Source: a phage. Taken from it: a stretch of DNA of 64,000 nucleotides. Under the pieces are notes generated by a model. The model did no database searches, was not told where the DNA came from, and saw only the letters and a list, made by a program, of their open reading frames with translations. How positions within the stretch are numbered: position 1 is the stretch's first letter; every line of letters starts with the position of its first letter. This document shows, in pieces, positions 4,069 to 63,893 of the stretch. The position numbers and the translations under genes were made by a program. The DNA lies in the sequence record OZ346187.1. One strand, written 5' to 3'.

Positions 4069-7000
4069 ATGAGTATGTGGAATTTTGACTTTGAGGCCTC
4101 AGGTCTTCTGGACGAGGAAGATCTTTACTACCATTGTGGCCTGTTTAAAGAGTTGAATAAAAATAATTTTATGTTGTTTTTGCCTATCAATGATAGATCT
4201 CATTACAGTGAAGAGGAGGTTGAAAAAGCAAAACAATTTATGCTGGCAAAGCAAGATATCTATCCTAGCTGCTCTGTCCGTATTGCGGATTTCAGCCAGC
4301 TTGAATGGTGGTTAACCGGGAACTCCGATTGGTCACCCACATCATTAAGTTGTCACAACTGTTTTAGTTATGACTTTATCTTGATGGAGAAGCTGTCTGG
4401 TATTCATTTTGATATGTTCCGTGATCCCAAGTGTATGGGGACAATCAATAATCATCAGGTGAACCTGTTCGACACTCTGCCAATGAGTCGTATACTATGG
4501 CCCGACAGACCGTTACCTAAAGGATGCCCTGATTCTGTATACAATCCTGTTACAAAACGTATGCAGCAGGTAGGTCCTCATGGCCTAATGGCGTGGGGGT
4601 ACGCTTTAGGAAACCAGAAGGTTAAAATTGATGACTGGAGAAATTTACCTCTGTGGAAGTATGTTGATCGTGTATTCGAGGACGTTATCATCCAGGAGCT
4701 GCTCTGGAAAGAGCTGGTAGCGGAATCAAAAGGTGTATTCTACGGCAAATCTGACATGCAGAACTTTATGTACGATCCAGCCAAAGAGAAGCCGAAAGGG
4801 TTCAAGAAGATTACCTGGAAGAATGCATTACGCCGAGGCATGCTGCAGCACTTCCTGATGGAGCTGCAGGCCCGTCAGGGTGTATACTTCGACATAGATG
4901 GAGCTATTGCTTTACGTGACCGTTGCGATGCGTGGATGAAAGAAATCGCTGATCGTGTTGAACCACAACTACCTTTAAAAGAGCTGTCAATGTCTCAGCG
5001 GCCCAAGTTCCCTGAAAAGCCGTTTAACCAAGACGGGACAATCTCTAATAATGGTTGGAAATGGTTAAAAGATAAGCTTGGCTATCCTGTAGACATGAGT
5101 GCTTTAGAGTTCAAAGCCCCGCCTAAGCGAGCATTTACCTCTACAGGAGATGTCAGCAAGATGGGGATAAAATGGTGTGAAGAGATGGGCTGCAAAGACC
5201 CCGATAAGATGGCTGATTTCTTGAGAGGCTATATTAAGGGCACCTCCACACCACAACCCTTACCTAAAGAGCTGATGGATCAGGCAATAAGTGATCTGCA
5301 GCAGAAGCGAATGCCTGACTGCAAGATACCTATGAAAATCAGCAATCAGGACGACATCAAGCGATACCTAATCAGTGCTGGTTGGCTCCCAACAATGTGG
5401 AGAACTAAAGATGTAACTAAAGACAGCAAGAAGAAAGCTTTACCTGATGCAGATGTTGATGCACGAGTATATGCATATATGGACGAGCTTTTGGAGTCAG
5501 AGTATTGTGACCTAATTATCAACTTCTGGAACAAAACTGATGCTAAGTTCCAGACAACCGTGCACAAGTTCCGAAGCTTTCCTAACTCCGAAAGGATTAA
5601 AAAGGAAGTATTCGGGAAAATACGTAGAAAAGCCAGGGCACTTATTACTTCTCCGCAACTGAAAGATACGTTTGGACACCTATGCCCAAATCTTGAAAAA
5701 TTGAACGGAGAGATGGCTAAAGATATCGTCTTGTGGTTATCATTGCGAAACCGCAGATCGGTCCTTGATCCAATCAAGGAGGATAAGGTTGATACTGGTC
5801 TTCTTAATCACCCACGTTTGAAGATTGACCATAAGCTTCCTGCTAAAAGCTCTGGATTAACAAACACTTCCAGACAGAAACACAGTATTTGTGCAAACAT
5901 GCCTAAACCATCTCCTAAAGTGGTTATGGGTAAAGAGATGCGTAGTCTGTGGGGTGTTCCTCCGGGATACTTTGAGATCGGTATTGACGGGTCCAACTTA
6001 GAGCAGCTTATCGGGGCTTGGGGTGCCTTTGAGTTCGACAACGGCCTGTATTATGATGTTGTAAGTAATGGCGATGCACACTGTTATTCAGGAGATACAC
6101 AAATTCTCACGGAGAAAGGGTGGGTGAGGTTTGAAGATCTTGATCCGGGAACACAAGTGTTCCAGTACGATCACAACACCTCGTCAATGAACCTTGTTAC
6201 TCCATTAAATTACGTTAAGCGTAGTTATTGTGGGGATATGTATCATTTCCACAACAGTAGTGTGGATTTTATGGTTACAGATCAACACAGGATGCTGACT
6301 GTGGATCACAGAAGCAATAAATTGTTTGAAGATTTGGCAAAAGACCTGAAAGCAGGTAAAGGGTCTAATTCAGGAAGAAGGTTTATCCATGCGGCAGAGT
6401 TTTATGGGAATACAACCTTATCTCCTGCCCAGGTTAATTTGCTTATTGCTATTCACGATGATGGGCACTTGCATACAAATAAGGACGGCAGCATCGTGTG
6501 CAGGATTCAGGTCGGAAAGGGAAGAAAAGTTGCAACGCTTTTAGATACTTTTTCTGCTCTAAGCCTTAGTTATGTAGAGCAGAGCGGGAAAACCACAAAA
6601 GGGGGCTTACTGGCGAGAAGGTTCCAATTCCACGTTCCGTCCTGGGTATTTGAGTTTTTGGACAACAATAAGGATTTCACCTATAACCTGATGAACCTTG
6701 ATAAAGAATCTAAAAACCTGTTTATAGCTTCTTTATCTAACTGGGACGGGTGGGTATCTTCCGAAGGTGGAAAGGTTGCTTACTACTCCCAGGCCGAGTG
6801 CAGGAAGAAATCTGTAGAGGTGGTGTCTGCGCTGGCTACTCAGTGTGGTTTACGGAATAATACGGTGGCGATTCACAAAAAAGGTCGTGCCGTGCAGCAC
6901 AGAATCACAATTGGTAGCAAACAGAGAGCAGGGTTGCTGACACTATCTAAAGAGTCTGTCGAGGTGAGCGGTTCTTTGGTTTATTGCGTTACCGTCCCTT

Positions 7001-7401
7001 CTGGAGCAATCATTGTGAGAAGGAATGGTAAAGTGGCAGTGTGCGGTAACTGTAATAACGCCAAAGCTTACTCTTCTGTAGCAGGCAAGGAGATTTCCCG
7101 TAACGATGGTAAACCTATCACGTATGGGGTTATGTATGGGGCACAAAAAGATAAAGTTGCAGATATGCTGGACATCTCCCCAGAGTTGGGACAAAGGGTA
7201 ATCGATGCACTCTGGGATGCCAACCCAGGTCTTAAGGGGCGCAAAGAGGATCTGGAGAAATTCTGGGAAGCAACAGGTAAGAAGTTTATCTACTCTTTTG
7301 ATGGTCATGCTATCTGGACCCGATCTAAACACTCTTTACTTAATGCATACCAACAAAATGGCGGTGCATCGTTGTGTGACTTAGTTGGAATACTCATGCA
7401 C
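4069..7401 (+). CDS. DNA polymerase, family A, exon 1 (contains an in-frame intein; ORF reads through to a stop at 7467 inside the intron)
   Basis: 3'-5' exo motifs FDFEASGL (Exo I) and CHNCFSYDF (Exo II); motif B-like RNDGKPITYGVMYGAQ; ORF ends ...GILMH just before the expected HDE of motif C. Confidence 0.85.
6082..7050 (+). mobile_element. intein with LAGLIDADG homing-endonuclease domain inside DNA polymerase
   Basis: Starts CYSGDTQILTEKG (intein block A), TDQHRML (block B TxxH), LAGLIDADG-like LLIAIHDDGH and LFIASLSNWDGW, ends ...VAVCGN followed by Cys (+1). Confidence 0.65.
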
Positions 7402-7737
7402 CACCAGATGGTGAAGCGTGGGTGGTACGATGAAGGTGTTCGTCGTATTATTTATTACCATAAATAACATTGTGGCTTCATAGAGTAATCTATGTCGAAT
7501 AACCTCTTTAACTGCGGGAAGCCTAAACCTTATGGCAAGGTAATCCGCAACGAAGCGCTCAAAAGAGCGAACGCTCAGAGGCCATTCCGAAAGGAAGTAG
7601 ACCAGCAAGTGCGGTCGAAATGGGAGGATTCCTGTGGTTGCTTATCATAGGAATATGAGATGGTCCGATCCTACGTGAAAACGTATGGCTATGCACGTAA
7701 TGGTGCGGGGTAGCTTAACGACCTACCTGAACTATTG
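7402..7737 (+). mobile_element. group I intron without ORF, interrupting DNA polymerase at motif C (boundaries approximate)
   Basis: P-like AACTGCGGGAAG, Q-like AATCCGCAAC, R-like CTCAGAGGCCA, S-like AGATGGTCCGATCC; joining exons gives ...ILMH-DEYQLQV. Confidence 0.6.
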
Positions 7738-12507: not shown

Positions 12508-12535
12508 GCCCTGCCCGAAAGGGTGGGGCATTTTT
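12508..12535 (+). terminator. rho-independent terminator hairpin GCCCTGCCC-GAAA-GGGTGGGGC + T-run (copy 2 of 2)
   Basis: Same hairpin as at 1129-1155, directly downstream of the SSB-like gene. Confidence 0.6.
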
Positions 12536-55824: not shown

Positions 55825-56756
55825 TGCATATAGTCCTCGTTGTGGAAATAGTAGTCCAGTATCTCACGACGCTCCTGCTCTAATAAGCAATTCCACACAT
55901 CTTCTGTATAGTTGCTACGAATAAATTTTACCATACCGTAAAACTCTTCGTCAACACGTTTAAAGATATCATCATCCCAAATCTTCCAAGCTTTACCCCT
56001 CATTACTGCCTTCTGTGCCAGATAGTATGGAGACTTGATCTTCAGCTGCAGATCATAAGGGTAGTAAGGCTTACGAATCATATACCCTTCACCTCTTGTT
56101 TCTGCAGCTAATTCTTTTGCATAGCTGAACGGAATTTCACGCACAGTGTTAGGACGTTTTGCACCAAGGTATTTGGCAATCCCATCTAAAGCTGCTTCTG
56201 GTAGCATTATTCCAGAATCATTATATCTGCAACCTATCAAATATGCGCCATGGTCTTCTTGAACAATATGCGGATCTGAAGGGTGACAAATTTCAAACAT
56301 GAATGTCATGTTTTCATTGCCCATAACCTTCTTGATAAGATCTAAATTACCACATTGCTCTTGGATGGTTTCCTTTGCAAGGTTACAATATGGAGAATCA
56401 AGAGACCCGGTTGTTGAGAACAATAGGTCACCTTTATGAGATGATACCACACCAAGGAATCCGTTCTTTTTCTCTACCGCAGTCACAAGCTTATTGTCAG
56501 GCAGGTTGGTGGAGTTTTCTCCCAAGTTAAACACTTTTGTGAAGGGCCATGCCACAACATTTCCTTCATTACCTACAACAATGCCTCGGCACTCCAGTAA
56601 ACGAGGGGACAAATGCCATAAATTGTTGTAAAATACTTTTCTAGCATATTTATAGATCTTTAACCCGAGATCTGGGTAATACCTACTGGTTGCAAGACCT
56701 TTGTCAACTAGGTCGTCTGCATTAAAATACTTCATTATATGTTCCTCATTTGTCAT
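55821..56756 (-). CDS. putative RNA ligase (nucleotidyltransferase KxNG)
   Basis: VEKKNGFLG fits the ligase lysine motif K-x-(D/N)-G; a DNA ligase is encoded separately. Confidence 0.5.
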   Translation of the reverse strand: MTNEEHIMKYFNADDLVDKGLATSRYYPDLGLKIYKYARKVFYNNLWHLSPRLLECRGIVVGNEGNVVAWPFTKVFNLGENSTNLPDNKLVTAVEKKNGFLGVVSSHKGDLLFSTTGSLDSPYCNLAKETIQEQCGNLDLIKKVMGNENMTFMFEICHPSDPHIVQEDHGAYLIGCRYNDSGIMLPEAALDGIAKYLGAKRPNTVREIPFSYAKELAAETRGEGYMIRKPYYPYDLQLKIKSPYYLAQKAVMRGKAWKIWDDDIFKRVDEEFYGMVKFIRSNYTEDVWNCLLEQERREILDYYFHNEDYMQ

Positions 56757-56799
56757 TTTGTCAGTCTATCCTGCCACACAAATAACTTAGTGTCAACAC

Positions 56800-56828
56800 T
56801 TGAAATTAACAAAACAGTTAGGTATACT
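56800..56828 (+). promoter_or_regulatory. sigma70-like promoter TTGAAA-17-TATACT
   Basis: -35/-10 hexamers with 17-nt spacer ~29 nt upstream of the kinase ATG. Confidence 0.5.
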
Positions 56829-56856
56829 ACCGTTGAAATTAAAACGGAGGGTCGCT

Positions 56857-57267
56857 ATGTCTAAAATGCTATATATCGTGCGTGGTCTACCAGGGTCTGG
56901 CAAATCAACACTGGCAAATGCGCTATCTTTAGAGGGTCTGTATCCACATTTTGAGAACGACATGTTCTGGTATGACGATGACGGCAATTACAACTGGGAT
57001 GCAAGTAAAGTAACACTCGCAGCAAAATGGTGCAAAGATAACGTAGAAGATATGATGCGTATGGGATACGACCGTATCGTGGTAAGTAATACGTTTACAA
57101 AAGAAAAACATGTGCAGGAATATGTTGACATGGCAATCACTCATGGGTATAGTTATACCGTGATCGTGGTTGAAAACCGCCACGGCAATAAAAGCATTCA
57201 TGATGTTCCAGACAAGGTTGTGGATCGTATGGAACGCCAGCTTAAAAACTGCATTAAACTTAAATGA
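56857..57267 (+). CDS. P-loop polynucleotide kinase-like protein
   Basis: Walker A GLPGSGKST at residues 9-17; ORF-track start 56800 trimmed to ATG 56857 after GGAGGG RBS. Confidence 0.6.
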   Translation: MSKMLYIVRGLPGSGKSTLANALSLEGLYPHFENDMFWYDDDGNYNWDASKVTLAAKWCKDNVEDMMRMGYDRIVVSNTFTKEKHVQEYVDMAITHGYSYTVIVVENRHGNKSIHDVPDKVVDRMERQLKNCIKLK

Positions 57268-57274
57268 GGAATGT

Positions 57275-57829
57275 ATGAAATACTTTGTAACAAGCGACAC
57301 ACACTTTCTCCACCAGCGGGTCATGGAGTTTGATTCATGTCAAAAACACAGATCTCAGTATGATCACAATCTTGACAGTATGAATGCGGGAATCATCACC
57401 AAGTGGAACTCTGTTGTGTCACCTGCAGACACTGTGTTCCACTTGGGAGATATTGCATGCACTAATGATAAGAATATCAACAAATTGCTCCCAGATATTC
57501 TAAATATGTTGAACGGACATATTATTCTTGTTCGTGGCAACCATGACACAAGGACGACTGTCAAAATTATGAAAGAGTTCGGTCATGAGGTTGTAGATTA
57601 TTACGAGCTTCGCCACAACAAGAATTTGATCTGTATGAGCCATTACCAGTTTGCAAAGTGGAACAGAAAGCCTCACGGATCAGTCCAACTGTTCGGTCAT
57701 GCTCACGGAACCACACAACAGTTGTTTGGCAGGCAGCTTGATGTCGGTTGGGATGTGTGGGGGAGACTCTTACCATTAGAAGAGGCATACCGTATTGCAA
57801 TGAGTTTTGATATTGACAGCAGGGAGTAA
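57275..57829 (+). CDS. calcineurin-like metallophosphoesterase
   Basis: VTSDTHF, HLGDI, RGNHD, GHAHG motifs; ORF-track start 57170 trimmed to ATG 57275. Confidence 0.6.
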   Translation: MKYFVTSDTHFLHQRVMEFDSCQKHRSQYDHNLDSMNAGIITKWNSVVSPADTVFHLGDIACTNDKNINKLLPDILNMLNGHIILVRGNHDTRTTVKIMKEFGHEVVDYYELRHNKNLICMSHYQFAKWNRKPHGSVQLFGHAHGTTQQLFGRQLDVGWDVWGRLLPLEEAYRIAMSFDIDSRE

Positions 57830-57876
57830 TCCCTGCTATTTTAAAGAAAATTGCCACACAAGGAGAATCAGGAGAT

Positions 57877-58227
57877 ATGAAAGATGGGGATAAGCTGCTA
57901 TATCTTAAAGTCCCCCTTGAAATACTATCTATGTCAAAAGTTTTGAATGACACAACTGGGGAGGTTGTTGTTCTTGACTTGTATGACAAGATCGTATACT
58001 GCTACCTGCACAACTGGTATAAGCTTGGAGGAAATTCACGCTTCACACCAAGCACAAGGAAAATTGCAGCAGATGTTGGGATAAAGAAAACAAAAGCAGC
58101 AGCGTGCGTTAAAACTTTAGAATGTGCAGGAGTGGTTGAAACATCCACACAAGGGAGAGGTAAAAGATGCACATTTTCCAAAGTTTTGCCACCAGAAGAA
58201 GTTATTCGGATGTCAACAACTGGTTAG
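57877..58227 (+). CDS. putative DNA-binding protein (winged HTH)
   Basis: STRKIAADVGIKKTKAAACVKTLECAGVVE looks like an HTH recognition helix; lies just upstream of tandem palindromic repeats. Confidence 0.45.
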   Translation: MKDGDKLLYLKVPLEILSMSKVLNDTTGEVVVLDLYDKIVYCYLHNWYKLGGNSRFTPSTRKIAADVGIKKTKAAACVKTLECAGVVETSTQGRGKRCTFSKVLPPEEVIRMSTTG

Positions 58228-58303
58228 ACCAGTAAAAACTTAAATATCTGTACTATAAGGATTCGTATGTTTTATGTTCGCCATGGAACGGATACTATTA
58301 ACT

Positions 58304-58363
58304 GTCCGTGATACGGACACATCTGCCCGTAATACGGACACTAACTGTCCGTGATACGGACAC
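58304..58363. repeat. three tandem palindromic sites GTCCGTGATACGGACAC / GCCCGTAATACGGACAC / GTCCGTGATACGGACAC at 21-22 bp spacing
   Basis: Each unit is a 6-bp inverted repeat GTCCGT..ACGGAC with 3-bp spacer; followed by a very AT-rich stretch. Confidence 0.8.
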
Positions 58364-58866
58364 ATAAAGAATATAACTAAAATAACTAAATAATAAAAAA
58401 TAAAAGATCTAGTACTTATGGTACTAAGTACATATACTTAACTTATGTAGAATATACTAGATCCTAAGTACCATGTTTTAAATTTATTACTTACTATGGG
58501 CAGTGTCGGCCCTTCATTGGCACTCGCCTACGAGGGGCGAGATGCCGGGCCTCCTTGGTGCACACAATAACAGAAGTTCATACATGCAGGTCTGTTAACA
58601 TGTGTGGGAGCGAAGCGATAGCGCAGGCCAAAGGCCGAGCACTGATGTGGGCCACCGACGAAAGCTTGCCAGCGCCGTAAGGAGTCGGTTGAGAGTCTCC
58701 CGCACGAGCTTGGATGAAGTTTATGTGTGGAAACTGACAAGAAGGCCCCTAAATCGCTCCACAGCTATATAAACTATACCAGGTAATGCAATCGCACCAG
58801 TTTGATAGAAAAGCTCGTTACAAAGCGATACAGTGAGTTTTTCTATAACTTGAAGAGGAGGCAGCT

Positions 58867-59445
58867 ATGGGTTCACGCAAAGATGACCGTGAAAAGATTG
58901 CAAAACGTTATCAGAATGAAGAACAGATGGAGAAAACTTTCAAGTGGAAGCCAGGTTTCCAGCGTAATCATTCTAACGCTCGTGATCGTAAGCATCCGGA
59001 TAAGTGGTTAACACCGCCAAATGATGGCATGCAGGTTGGGGATGAGAAGGAGCTGTCACCTGGAAAAGATGGCAACTACATTCGCACTAAGGAAGCAGGT
59101 CCAAAGGATGACAGCTATCTTGTAGATAAGGTTCTTGACGGTGTTGATGTAGGTGTTGACACTGTACGAAACCTTTTTCTTGGTTGGTATCGCACAGGGT
59201 TTTTCGACATCAAGGCTATTCGTCGTGTTTGTGATATTAAAAAGTCTGCCTACGATGATGATTCCCTACATCGCACTCTGAGACAATACTCAGAGAGGTA
59301 CGGTCATCCAGTTATCACTCTTGACGATATTAACGAAGTTATGTATCATGTAGAGGTTGTTGCAGGTAGGTTCGGTGATGCATATCTCGGTATTCTTTCT
59401 GCAAAGGATGAGGTAATGTTAAATAAGATTTACTATGAACGCTGA
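58867..59445 (+). CDS. hypothetical protein
   Basis: ORF with GAGGAGG RBS. Confidence 0.5.
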   Translation: MGSRKDDREKIAKRYQNEEQMEKTFKWKPGFQRNHSNARDRKHPDKWLTPPNDGMQVGDEKELSPGKDGNYIRTKEAGPKDDSYLVDKVLDGVDVGVDTVRNLFLGWYRTGFFDIKAIRRVCDIKKSAYDDDSLHRTLRQYSERYGHPVITLDDINEVMYHVEVVAGRFGDAYLGILSAKDEVMLNKIYYER

Positions 59446-59640
59446 GGGGCGATTAATGAACAATCCGGTAGCAAAGAACTGTAATAAATTCAACAAGTCT
59501 GCGATTCACACTGACAGGAAAAAGAGTTGGTTTCCTGACATTGACGAGGAGCTTGAGAGTTACTTTGAAGATTTAGTCACCAATGCAGATGAGGTTGCGA
59601 TTAAAGAATACGCAGACAGGAGGGATAAGGCCGGAATCTG

Positions 59641-61211: not shown

Positions 61212-61310
61212 GCTAGGTAAGCCCTTTGGCAAGGGCGAGGATTTTTAATCCTGAAAATAGACGAGGTAGTCGTTGAATACATAGGTGGTTCGATTCCATC
61301 ACCTAGCACC
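61212..61310 (+). tRNA. atypical tRNA-like gene (possible tRNA-Lys TTT with ~30-nt extra arm) or tRNA pseudogene
   Basis: Perfect acceptor GCTAGGT/ACCTAGC, D-arm GCCC-TTTGGCAA-GGGC, T-arm GGTGG-TTCGATT-CCATC, but 47 nt between D and T arms; loop TTTTTAA on a 4-bp stem. Confidence 0.4.
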
Positions 61311-62375: not shown

Positions 62376-62659
62376 GAGTTGCTACACTGTTTATTGTGTG
62401 CTTGTTATTATGTGGGTGTGCAACCAGCGTTGAGAGAGAATACAAGATTGACCCTCCTGATGTAGGAAGGTTGATTGTTAAACCCCCGGAAGGTGCCATG
62501 AAACCACCTGCTAAAGCTATGCCTTTGAAGAAAGGTGCGCCAGATGCAGTGAATTCTGGCATTATGAGGGATAATAATCTGTCTTGTAGCAATGATAGAG
62601 CTAAATTGATCATTTTGCAAGACTATATTAGAACACTTTTTCCAAAGGAGAGAGGTTAA
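62372..62659 (+). CDS. putative o-spanin (Rz1-like lipoprotein)
   Basis: Lipobox-type signal MRVATLFIVCLLLCGCAT; Pro-rich; 4-nt overlap with the i-spanin candidate. Confidence 0.5.
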   Translation: MRVATLFIVCLLLCGCATSVEREYKIDPPDVGRLIVKPPEGAMKPPAKAMPLKKGAPDAVNSGIMRDNNLSCSNDRAKLIILQDYIRTLFPKERG

Positions 62660-63084
62660 TGTCTAAGATTTACGGACCGTGTTCTGAAAAGCAGAAGATG
62701 ATCCTAGAAAACGATGCAGATATTTTGGTAATCGGCGGTGCCGCAGGGTCTGGCAAGTCGTTCCTCTTGCAATTGATGCCACTTAAAATTATTGATGACC
62801 CCCACAGCTCTGTGGTTATGTTCCGAAGAACAACCCCACAGTTGGAAGGTGAGGGTGGATTATGGCCTAAAGCAGTAGCTATTTATAGTGATCTGCCTGA
62901 AAACATTAAGCCAAAGTTTAGAGAGAAGGATCATAAGTTCATTTTTCCACGGTTTGATCCGAACACTGGCAAGTGGGATAGAAGCAAAAAGGGAGCTGTT
63001 GTAAAATACTGCCACATGGAGTATGTACAAGATAAGCTTAACCATCAGGGGCTTGAGTACACCATGGTTTGCTTCGATGAGGGT
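62659..63084 (+). CDS. terL: terminase large subunit, exon 1 (N-terminal ATPase; interrupted by intron)
   Basis: Walker A VIGGAAGSGKS; Walker B MVCFDEG immediately before the stop at the intron start. Confidence 0.7.
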
Positions 63085-63134
63085 TAATTTGTAGCTCTCG
63101 TAAAACCTCCCTAATTGCGGGGAAATCTTTATTA

Positions 63135-63163
63135 TTGACACCACCAACCTGTCATGGTAACAT
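63135..63163 (+). promoter_or_regulatory. promoter-like TTGACA-17-TAACAT inside the terL intron, upstream of the endonuclease ORF
   Basis: Consensus -35 and plausible -10; overlaps palindrome TGTCATGGTAACATGACA. Confidence 0.35.
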
Positions 63164-63302
63164 GACAGAGGCTTCGAAGAGAGATCGAAGGTATGGTAAC
63201 AGTGTGTTAATTTAGATAATCCGCAGCGAAGCATCCGAGAGGATGAACGTTCAACGACTAGTCGAAAGACGTAGAATCAAGCGATTCGAAACGGGAGGGT
63301 GA

Positions 63303-63893
63303 ATGTGTAATACTAAGAAATGTATGGATTGCCAAAGAGTTCTACCTATTGATGATTTCTTTTTATCATCTAAGAGCAAGGATGGATACTCAGGTACATG
63401 CAAGGAATGCTATATGTACTACAGGAAGGGTGGATCTCGTAAAAACAAAAATATGGTTAAGAGAGATGATGCAGCATTGTTTATTCAAGACTTGCTGAAG
63501 AAAGGTGAACTTTTTGAATGCAAATCTTGTCATGAAAGTATGCTCGCTGATAGTTTTTACACAAAACGTGACTATGGTAAAGTATATCTGGTTACGAACA
63601 GGTGTAAGATGTGTGAAAAGTTTTATCAGATTGAGAAGAAATTTAACATAACAAAAGATGAATACTATCGTCTACTCTCAGATCAAGATCATAAGTGTGC
63701 CATTTGTAGAATATCCCTTGATGAGTATAGGACGCAAGGGTATAGAGATTTCTTTTGTGTTGATCATGACCATAAAACTGGTGCTGTAAGAGGGTTGCTT
63801 TGTGATAAATGCAACAGAGCTTTAGGTTTCTTCCAAGAGGATGAGGAAACTATTCTTAGAGCGGCAGAGTATTTACACATTCATAAGATATAG
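63303..63893 (+). CDS. endonuclease VII-family (HNH-like) homing endonuclease, intron-encoded
   Basis: FCVDHDHKTGAVRGLLCDKCNRALG matches the endonuclease VII core; several CxxC pairs; inside the terL intron. Confidence 0.7.
   Translation: MCNTKKCMDCQRVLPIDDFFLSSKSKDGYSGTCKECYMYYRKGGSRKNKNMVKRDDAALFIQDLLKKGELFECKSCHESMLADSFYTKRDYGKVYLVTNRCKMCEKFYQIEKKFNITKDEYYRLLSDQDHKCAICRISLDEYRTQGYRDFFCVDHDHKTGAVRGLLCDKCNRALGFFQEDEETILRAAEYLHIHKI

Follow-up and report, generated by a model that had tools for sequence, protein, structure and literature searches.

A probable iteron-type replication origin beside a RepA_N-like winged-helix gene in an rV5-like Escherichia coli phage

A 64,000-nucleotide stretch of phage DNA (sequence record OZ346187.1, hereafter the window) carries three tandem palindromic repeats that begin 76 bp after the gene of a small winged-helix protein, gp075, and are followed by an extremely AT-rich tract. 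Together, these elements probably form the replication origin of the phage. The window comes from a Vequintavirus, an rV5-like E. coli myophage. In total, 119 phage records match the region with 89-99.8% identity; each is a Vequintavirus, and they share one gene order around the array. The nearest relative is phage nomine (MN850649), from which we read the 76 kb that lie beyond the window in a genome of ~138 kb with a GC content of about 43%. Several GenBank records already mark the site with a bare “repeat_region”. The features of the locus are collected in Table 1.

The array contains the 17-mers GTCCGTGATACGGACAC (58304-58320), GCCCGTAATACGGACAC (58325-58341) and again GTCCGTGATACGGACAC (58347-58363), with start-to-start distances of 21 and 22 bp. 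The symmetric unit is TGTCCGT-GAT-ACGGACA, with 7-bp arms and a 3-bp centre. With its core, GTCCG-N5-CGGAC, the half-sites are separated by one helical turn, and the distance between successive units corresponds to two. Tandem Repeats Finder identifies a single tandem array in the window (58299-58363, period 21, 3.0 copies). Allowing up to three mismatches, the 17-mer is found three times where 0.05 matches would be expected by chance, and none of the shuffles gave as many. The motif has no further copy in the window or in the remaining 76 kb, and neither a copy nor a half-site is found at the promoter of the gp075 gene. In addition, the array has zero matches among 5,426 complete E. coli genomes, and hence there is no sign of resident elements sharing the iterons. 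Folded as single-stranded DNA with DNA energy parameters, the segment gives z = -5.4, and each unit is able to form a hairpin (stem of 6-7 bp, loop of 3 nt).

Across the AT-rich tract, 60-bp windows have a GC content of 18-27%, and no other 120 bp of the whole genome are as poor in GC as those starting at 58371 (20%). AT skew is +0.49 at 58350-58409. The tract holds two GATC sites (58406 and 58460) and palindromic pairs, GATCTAGTA (58406-58414) with TACTAGATC (58454-58462) and ATGGTACTAAG (58418-58428) with CTAAGTACCAT (58464-58474). Its folding energy is unexceptional (z = -0.76). One segment of the minus strand matches the 13-mer consensus of E. coli oriC, GATCTnTTnTTTT. Overlapping this segment, AAAAGATCT occupies 58401-58409, and its AGATCT core also occurs in the AT-rich tracts of Klebsiella phage KpS8, Salmonella phage SSE121 and an Erwinia phage. 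These results agree with the original prediction, made from the letters alone, of three tandem palindromic repeats spaced by 21-22 bp just downstream of a small helix-turn-helix (HTH) gene and followed by ~130 bp of very AT-rich DNA; the further palindromes that it placed in this DNA are present, though energetically unremarkable.

Table 1 Features at and around the repeat array, in window coordinates
Feature	Position	Strand	Description
RNA ligase gene	left of the divergent switch	-	
Divergent transcription switch	about 56.78 kb		
Genes of AAA_33 kinase-like protein and metallophosphatase, then gp075 gene	right of the divergent switch		
Sigma-70-type promoter	57813-57842	+	TTGACA, 18-nt spacer, TATTTT, with TG; upstream of gp075 gene; 10/12 matches in consensus scan
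gp075 gene (rV5 gp075)	57877-58227	+	116-aa winged-helix protein; stand-alone RepA_N-like / DUF6945 DNA-binding domain; predicted iteron-binding initiator
Intergenic region	58228-58866		639 bp, unusually long
Iteron 1	58303-58319		TGTCCGTGATACGGACA; perfect 17-bp palindrome
Iteron 2 (iteron 3 of four-copy relatives)	58324-58340		TGCCCGTAATACGGACA; imperfect palindrome
Iteron 3 (iteron 4 of four-copy relatives)	58346-58362		TGTCCGTGATACGGACA; perfect palindrome; adjoins AT-rich tract
AT-rich tract	58364-58498		Predicted DNA unwinding element; 135 bp; first 45 bp strongly A-rich on + strand
Match to oriC 13-mer consensus	58397-58409	-	GATCTTTTATTTT; exact; single match in 64 kb, both strands
GC-rich non-coding segment	58499-58770		55-67% GC; conserved; borders AT-rich tract
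gp073 and other small open reading frames, tRNA array, spanins, large terminase	downstream of the intergenic region		

Comparison with relatives indicates that the site is maintained by selection. Over 14 sequences, the share of variable columns is 7.5% in the repeats and 10.5% in the AT-rich tract, as compared to 32.4% in the 71-bp spacer before the repeats and 17.6% in the GC-rich segment. In the gp075 gene, it is 31.6% at third codon positions and about 8% at first and second positions. Therefore, purifying selection acts on the repeats and the AT-rich tract about as strongly as on the gp075 protein, and it constrains their sequence beyond mere composition. The spacer evolves roughly neutrally, like silent sites. 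The number of units varies. Most relatives have four, at distances of 21, 21 and 22 bp. The window lacks the second of these (GTCCGTCACGCGGACAC), as do the three relatives closest to it. There are two units in phage navn and three in record A135. Such variation is as expected from recombination between repeats, and the existence of phages with two to four units means that these numbers are tolerated.

gp075 resembles the DNA-binding domain of a characterized replication initiator. It falls in phrog_12838, “replication initiation protein” (E = 5e-80), with weak matches to three other initiator PHROGs. RefSeq carries the same label, whereas many GenBank records name the protein “putative transcriptional regulator”. 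Compared by phmmer with solved structures, gp075 has one significant match, PDB 4RO3 (E = 3e-6, residues 12-89), and a family profile built from gp075 and distant homologues strengthens this match to E = 3.1e-15. An AlphaFold model computed from 15 sequences (predicted local distance difference test (pLDDT) 73, predicted template modelling score 0.69) was used for Foldseek, while a single-sequence model with a pLDDT of 39 was set aside. The best structural match is again 4RO3 (template modelling score 0.56-0.59), followed by the Staphylococcus aureus RepA N-terminal domains 4PQL, 4PT7 and 5KBJ. 4RO3 is the N-terminal domain of RepA from the Vibrio cholerae satellite PLE, an initiator of the RepA_N family (PMC7145576). 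PLE RepA binds semi-palindromic iterons needed for replication, as established by electrophoretic mobility shift assay and deletion genetics (PMC7145576), and among PLEs, the DNA-binding domain of this protein and the origin vary together (PMC8263062). RepA_N-like initiators were described in 2019 as rare in Gram-negative systems (PMC7145576). With a domain covering residues ~12-100 of 116, gp075 appears from its sequence to be a stand-alone version of the initiator's DNA-binding domain.

The gp075 family is sparse. A search of 1.8 billion representative proteins gave eight matches, three of which (P0008, P0009 and P0011) look like true relatives, and a word-indexed protein search returned close relatives only. 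Homologues with 28-30% identity, all above the DUF6945 cut-off, are encoded by Erwinia phage pEp_SNUABM_01 (Henunavirus), Klebsiella phage KpS8 (Mydovirus) and Pseudomonas phage phiPMW. In each case, tandem palindromes spaced by 23-33 bp stand next to the gene: two units of TGCTCA-N3-TGAGCA in the Erwinia phage and KpS8, and three of GGACA-N3-TGTCC in phiPMW. The 5-kb Erwinia and phiPMW loci contain no other tandem palindromes. In the Erwinia phage and KpS8, which belong to the Vequintavirinae, an AT-rich tract of about 60-100 bp with AGATCT follows the repeats. Hence, homologues in other genera adjoin different palindromes in the same layout, which indicates that protein and site co-vary. The module of these genera is located right at the divergent-transcription switch, next to nucleotide-metabolism genes, with the repeats 10-85 bp before the start codon; Vequintavirus differs in having them downstream of the gene. 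For two metagenomic homologues (from L019 and L020), no clear palindromic array is seen next to the gene.

Longer homologues (194-217 aa; P0009, P0011, P0014 and P0015) end in acidic tails (..DEAPF, ..DAPF, ..GEPF, ..DEPF) that resemble the C-terminal tip of the single-stranded DNA-binding protein SSB. These tails could recruit replisome proteins; gp075 has none. As a separate observation, the AT-rich tract of the window is rich in GTAC-containing motifs at 58411-58474 (AGTAC, GGTAC, TAAGTAC), and the metagenomic phages L019 (3480-3520) and L020 (3485-3520), which encode longer gp075 homologues, have an AT-rich tract followed by AGGTACA direct repeats 21-25 bp apart. GTAC-type motifs could be sites for a second protein.

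The same repeat geometry recurs in predicted initiator genes of other phages. We scanned genome and viral collections for two adjacent GTCCG-N5-CGGAC units and fetched 240 loci among the matches listed. Among the listed matches, the genome collection gave mainly GC-rich bacteria and was uninformative on E. coli satellites. At least 12 of the fetched loci have an open reading frame (ORF) matching the gp075-family profile, and in 12 of 12 the array lies inside this ORF. The arrays have 2-6 units, for the most part at distances of 22-23 bp or multiples of this, and sit just past an N-terminal HTH_36/DnaD_N domain, before a local GC dip. The 12 loci come from about five lineages, and in one of these the phage replication-protein C-terminus Phg_2220_C is also present. 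This is the arrangement of lambda O and its ori, with the repeat geometry recurring in predicted phage initiator modules.

Taken together, phased tandem repeats, an adjacent AT-rich element and the gene of a cognate initiator-like protein make it probable that the array and AT-rich tract are an iteron-type replication origin. This reading is supported by the homology of gp075 to the DNA-binding domain of a proven iteron-binding initiator. Further independent support comes from the co-variation of protein and site across phage genera, from purifying selection on the repeats and the tract, from the uniqueness of the array in the genome and its position against the most AT-rich DNA, and from the presence of the same repeat type inside initiator-like genes elsewhere, as in lambda. 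It is in line with the original prediction of an origin in which iterons and an unwinding element are served by the upstream HTH protein. Binding of the repeats by gp075 is inferred from the co-variation of protein and repeats across genera alone. In addition, the site, which corresponds to ~65.0-65.2 kb in rV5, lies 1.5 kb from the divergent-transcription switch and the cumulative GC-skew minimum. The phage itself encodes a T7-gp4-like primase-helicase and a Pol A-type polymerase.

The following mechanism may be proposed. gp075 would be expressed from the sigma-70-type early promoter upstream of its gene, which is the counterpart of “P76” annotated in rV5 (NC_011041). Dimers of gp075 would then bind the three palindromes TGTCCGT-N3-ACGGACA (four in most relatives), and the spacing of two turns would bring all of them onto one face of the helix. 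The resulting nucleoprotein complex would destabilize the adjoining AT-rich tract, with opening probably beginning in its A-rich part, near the GATCTTTTATTTT 13-mer. Transcription from the gp075 promoter would cross the repeats and the tract, and such read-through may help melting because there is no terminator between promoter and site; a terminator scan of 56500-59500 found no terminator-like site. Finally, the phage primase-helicase and Pol A-type polymerase would load onto the opened DNA and start replication.

Several observations weigh against an origin. gp075 scores just below the Pfam cut-offs (27.4 vs 28 bits for DUF6945 and 24.5 vs 25 for HTH_36) and does not match Pfam RepA_N (PF06970). 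It lacks the C-terminal domain by which RepA_N and lambda O initiators recruit the replisome, and its type of winged helix is also frequent in transcription factors. In the other genera, repeats directly upstream of the gene look equally like an autoregulatory operator. The 13-mer match was spotted post hoc, in AT-rich DNA, and the intergenic region has no DnaA box or IHF consensus; such host-factor sites, found in many but not all iteron-type origins, can be dispensed with by phage origins served by a replisome of the phage itself. In these phages, GC skew tracks the direction of transcription, and a second divergent switch exists in the genome (~53.6 kb in nomine). In Salmonella phage SSE121, ATTCCC-N4-GGGAAT occurs twice before an AT-rich tract with four GATC sites, but the neighbouring protein (gp228, 1213-1773 of the locus) is not a clear homologue. 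We gave this case little weight because gp228 is only a winged helix of generic type that matches T5orf172 weakly. Finally, the literature searched holds no replication data for any Vequintavirus.

An unlikely, though not negligible, alternative is that gp075 is a transcription regulator with no replication role and the array its operator or roadblock. An operator array was also among the readings of the original prediction. Here, the sites would control read-through from the gp075 promoter into the downstream genes, while in phages where they precede the gene, as in the Erwinia phage, KpS8 and phiPMW, they would serve autoregulation. This fits the small winged-helix domain, with its weak matches to the MarR, CodY, LexA and GntR families, the name given in many GenBank records and the lack of a replisome-recruiting domain. 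On the other hand, the array lies downstream of the gene in Vequintavirus. No promoter-like site is found at 58228-58866 and none is annotated there in rV5, and the gene's own promoter bears no trace of the motif. The best and only significant homology of gp075 is to the DNA-binding domain of a replication initiator. An operator would also leave unexplained a conserved, genome-extreme AT-rich tract with AGATCT, seen in several genera. Moreover, many iteron initiators autoregulate too, so the upstream repeats of other phages do not oppose an origin. An operator or roadblock role could coexist with origin function.

The other explanations are much weaker. It is very improbable that the array is a centromere-like partition site bound by gp075 and stabilizing an episomal phage genome; the original prediction had also named a partition site. 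Tandem repeats beside a small DNA-binding protein do resemble plasmid centromeres, a complete Vequintavirus genome was deposited as a circular 137.6-kb “plasmid”, and SopB_HTH is matched very weakly (E = 0.066) by one homologue. However, no ParA/ParM/TubZ-type NTPase gene lies nearby: the P-loop neighbour is an AAA_33 protein, polynucleotide-kinase-like. These phages are also virulent, gp075 is homologous to an initiator, and a centromere needs no adjacent AT-rich tract, so that this part of the prediction found no support.

A packaging (pac) site with gp075 as a small terminase-like recognition protein is just as hard to credit. The reported circular permutation of rV5 implies headful packaging, the small terminase is unannotated, the large terminase gene begins 4.3 kb downstream, and small terminases carry N-terminal HTH domains. 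Nevertheless, gp075 resembles dimeric RepA_N-type domains, not terminase small subunits. Six ORFs, seven tRNA genes and the spanin genes separate its gene, which is among the early genes, from that of the large terminase, and other genera have the module in the early divergent promoter region, beside nucleotide-metabolism genes. Finally, three 3′ hairpins that terminate or stabilize the gp075 mRNA, as the fold of units lying just 3′ of the gene might suggest, are most improbable, since no U-tract follows any hairpin, the terminator scan is negative, equivalent palindromes lie upstream of the gene in other genera, and the 21-22-bp phasing and co-variation with the protein family point to a protein on duplex DNA.

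Returning to the origin, there is a further and rather tentative proposal, which we think has the odds against it. A gp075-type domain without replisome recruitment could be a complete minimal initiator, and its family the source pool of the PLE RepA and Odn domains. gp075 would then only remodel and melt the origin, perhaps aided by transcription, leaving the T7-gp4-like primase-helicase to load itself. The family occurs across lytic Gram-negative phages and could be the pool that supplied the DNA-binding domains of PLE RepA and of Odn, the origin-directed nuclease of ICP1. The SSE121 neighbour protein hints at such a nuclease fusion. If this is true, rV5-like origins would be potential targets of as yet undescribed satellites or origin-directed nucleases. 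The architecture of gp228, a winged helix with a weak GIY-YIG-like T5orf172 match, recalls Odn.

Beyond the AT-rich tract, the GC-rich segment may or may not belong to the origin. ORFs within it, including the annotated rv5_gp074, have no coding signature, with 9 synonymous versus 24 non-synonymous changes and a frame broken in one relative. An RNA structure was considered for the segment and rejected, since its fold (z = -2.9) has no covariation support, and Rfam gives nothing credible in 58200-58900. The motif TTACTATGGG at the AT/GC boundary was also discarded as a recurrent element: it does not recur in the window.

Neighbours of the gp075 locus also include a Sir2 gene, and the AAA_33 protein is encoded in one region with a phosphoesterase and an RNA ligase. 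The gp075 promoter has, between its -35 and -10 elements, a perfect inverted repeat with 8-bp arms, AGCAGGGA-GTAA-TCCCTGCT (57818-57837), which covers the stop codon of the preceding gene. This repeat might serve as terminator or attenuator, or as the operator of another factor.

Other observations concern the rest of the window and its relatives. A group I intron (Rfam, 64.7 bits) is located at 7452-7687, at the end of a 1132-aa ORF (4069-7467) whose position matches the DNA polymerase gene; the counterpart in nomine is shorter (2778 nt) and uninterrupted. In the region 62659-63893, the large terminase ORF ends after 142 aa (62659-63087) and an HNH-endonuclease-like ORF (63303-63893) is next, while the terminase gene of nomine is unbroken (21-1568). 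The large terminase gene of the window phage thus seems to carry a homing-endonuclease or intron insertion. A tRNA-like gene at 61212-61310 is unusually long (97-99 nt), with a four-base anticodon (atcc, ARAGORN) and just 35.5 bits for the Rfam tRNA model; other records annotate it as tRNA-Lys or “tRNA-OTHER”. The 17-mer GCCCGAAAGGGTGGGGC, identical at 1134-1150 and 12513-12529, 11.4 kb apart, may be a repeated hairpin or terminator element.

Among database records, CP057073.1 (137,565 bp) is the whole Vequintavirus genome deposited as a circular “plasmid”, pRHB39-C03_2, from an E. coli isolate of cattle faeces, which may reflect a carrier state or contamination. Eighteen “Campylobacter phage” records (MG0656xx, e.g. 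MG065672 and MG065690), some marked UNVERIFIED, are Vequintavirus genomes. Their host label is doubtful because they are 90-98% identical to E. coli phages. One “Campylobacter phage” record begins inside the array; a genome end at this point was considered and rejected in favour of an assembly break at the repeat.

In the literature searched, no origin is described for rV5-like phages. The skew analysis of the rV5 genome paper revealed changes in transcription direction only, and the origin was not located. The origin proposed here is most likely of an ordinary kind, iteron-type with a RepA_N-like initiator domain, and new for this phage group. rV5-like phages are widely isolated and are used in E. 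coli O157 biocontrol and therapy. A precise candidate of about 200 bp of DNA and one 116-aa protein would be useful in engineering them, in the construction of phage-dependent replicons and in the interpretation of replication dynamics. It would also extend the RepA_N-like initiator domain to a large group of virulent enterobacterial phages.

Among known systems, iteron plasmids and oriC-type origins (P1 oriR, RK2 oriV, pSC101, F) share with the present site an initiator gene beside phased iterons and an AT-rich unwinding element with GATC and 13-mer-like sequences. The GC-rich DNA on the far side of the AT-rich region has a parallel in RK2 oriV. Initiators of these plasmids often autoregulate through the same sites. 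Unlike them, the site has no detected DnaA boxes or IHF sites, its repeats are full palindromes instead of asymmetric direct repeats, and gp075 is unrelated to the Rep_3/pi/RepE class.

RepA_N initiators (PLE RepA, 4RO3; RepA of S. aureus pSK41 and pTZ2162) are closest in the sequence and predicted fold of the DNA-binding domain. Their targets are semi-palindromic direct repeats (PMC7145576), and the domain co-varies with the iterons (PMC8263062). In contrast, gp075 is this domain without a C-terminal one, slightly under the DUF6945 threshold and unmatched by PF06970. The iteron centre is GAT/AAT here versus a poly-A tract, and PLE has repeats of about 30 bp as compared to 17-bp units at 21-22-bp spacing. 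RepA_N elements are plasmids or a satellite, whereas the present host of the domain is a virulent 138-kb phage.

The lambda origin and its O protein differ in that lambda uses host DnaB, while the window phage brings its own primase-helicase and polymerase. gp075 has no C-terminal domain recruiting P/DnaB, no match to Pfam Phage_rep_O was seen, and the array lies outside and downstream of the gp075 gene. On the other hand, the layout is similar. Lambda has four tandem inverted-repeat iterons (here two to four) of 17-19 bp, two of which suffice in vitro (PMC7466680), and a dimeric N-terminal winged-helix domain, predicted here. In both cases, a strand-asymmetric AT-rich tract (PMC5043065 for lambda) comes right after the iterons, followed by further palindromic DNA; an early promoter transcribes through the origin in lambda and would do so here. 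The lambda iterons lie inside the O gene, like the GTCCG-N5-CGGAC arrays inside initiator-like genes of other phages. Overall, palindromes of 15-17 bp at a distance of two helical turns form an iteron geometry that recurs outside initiator genes as well as within them.

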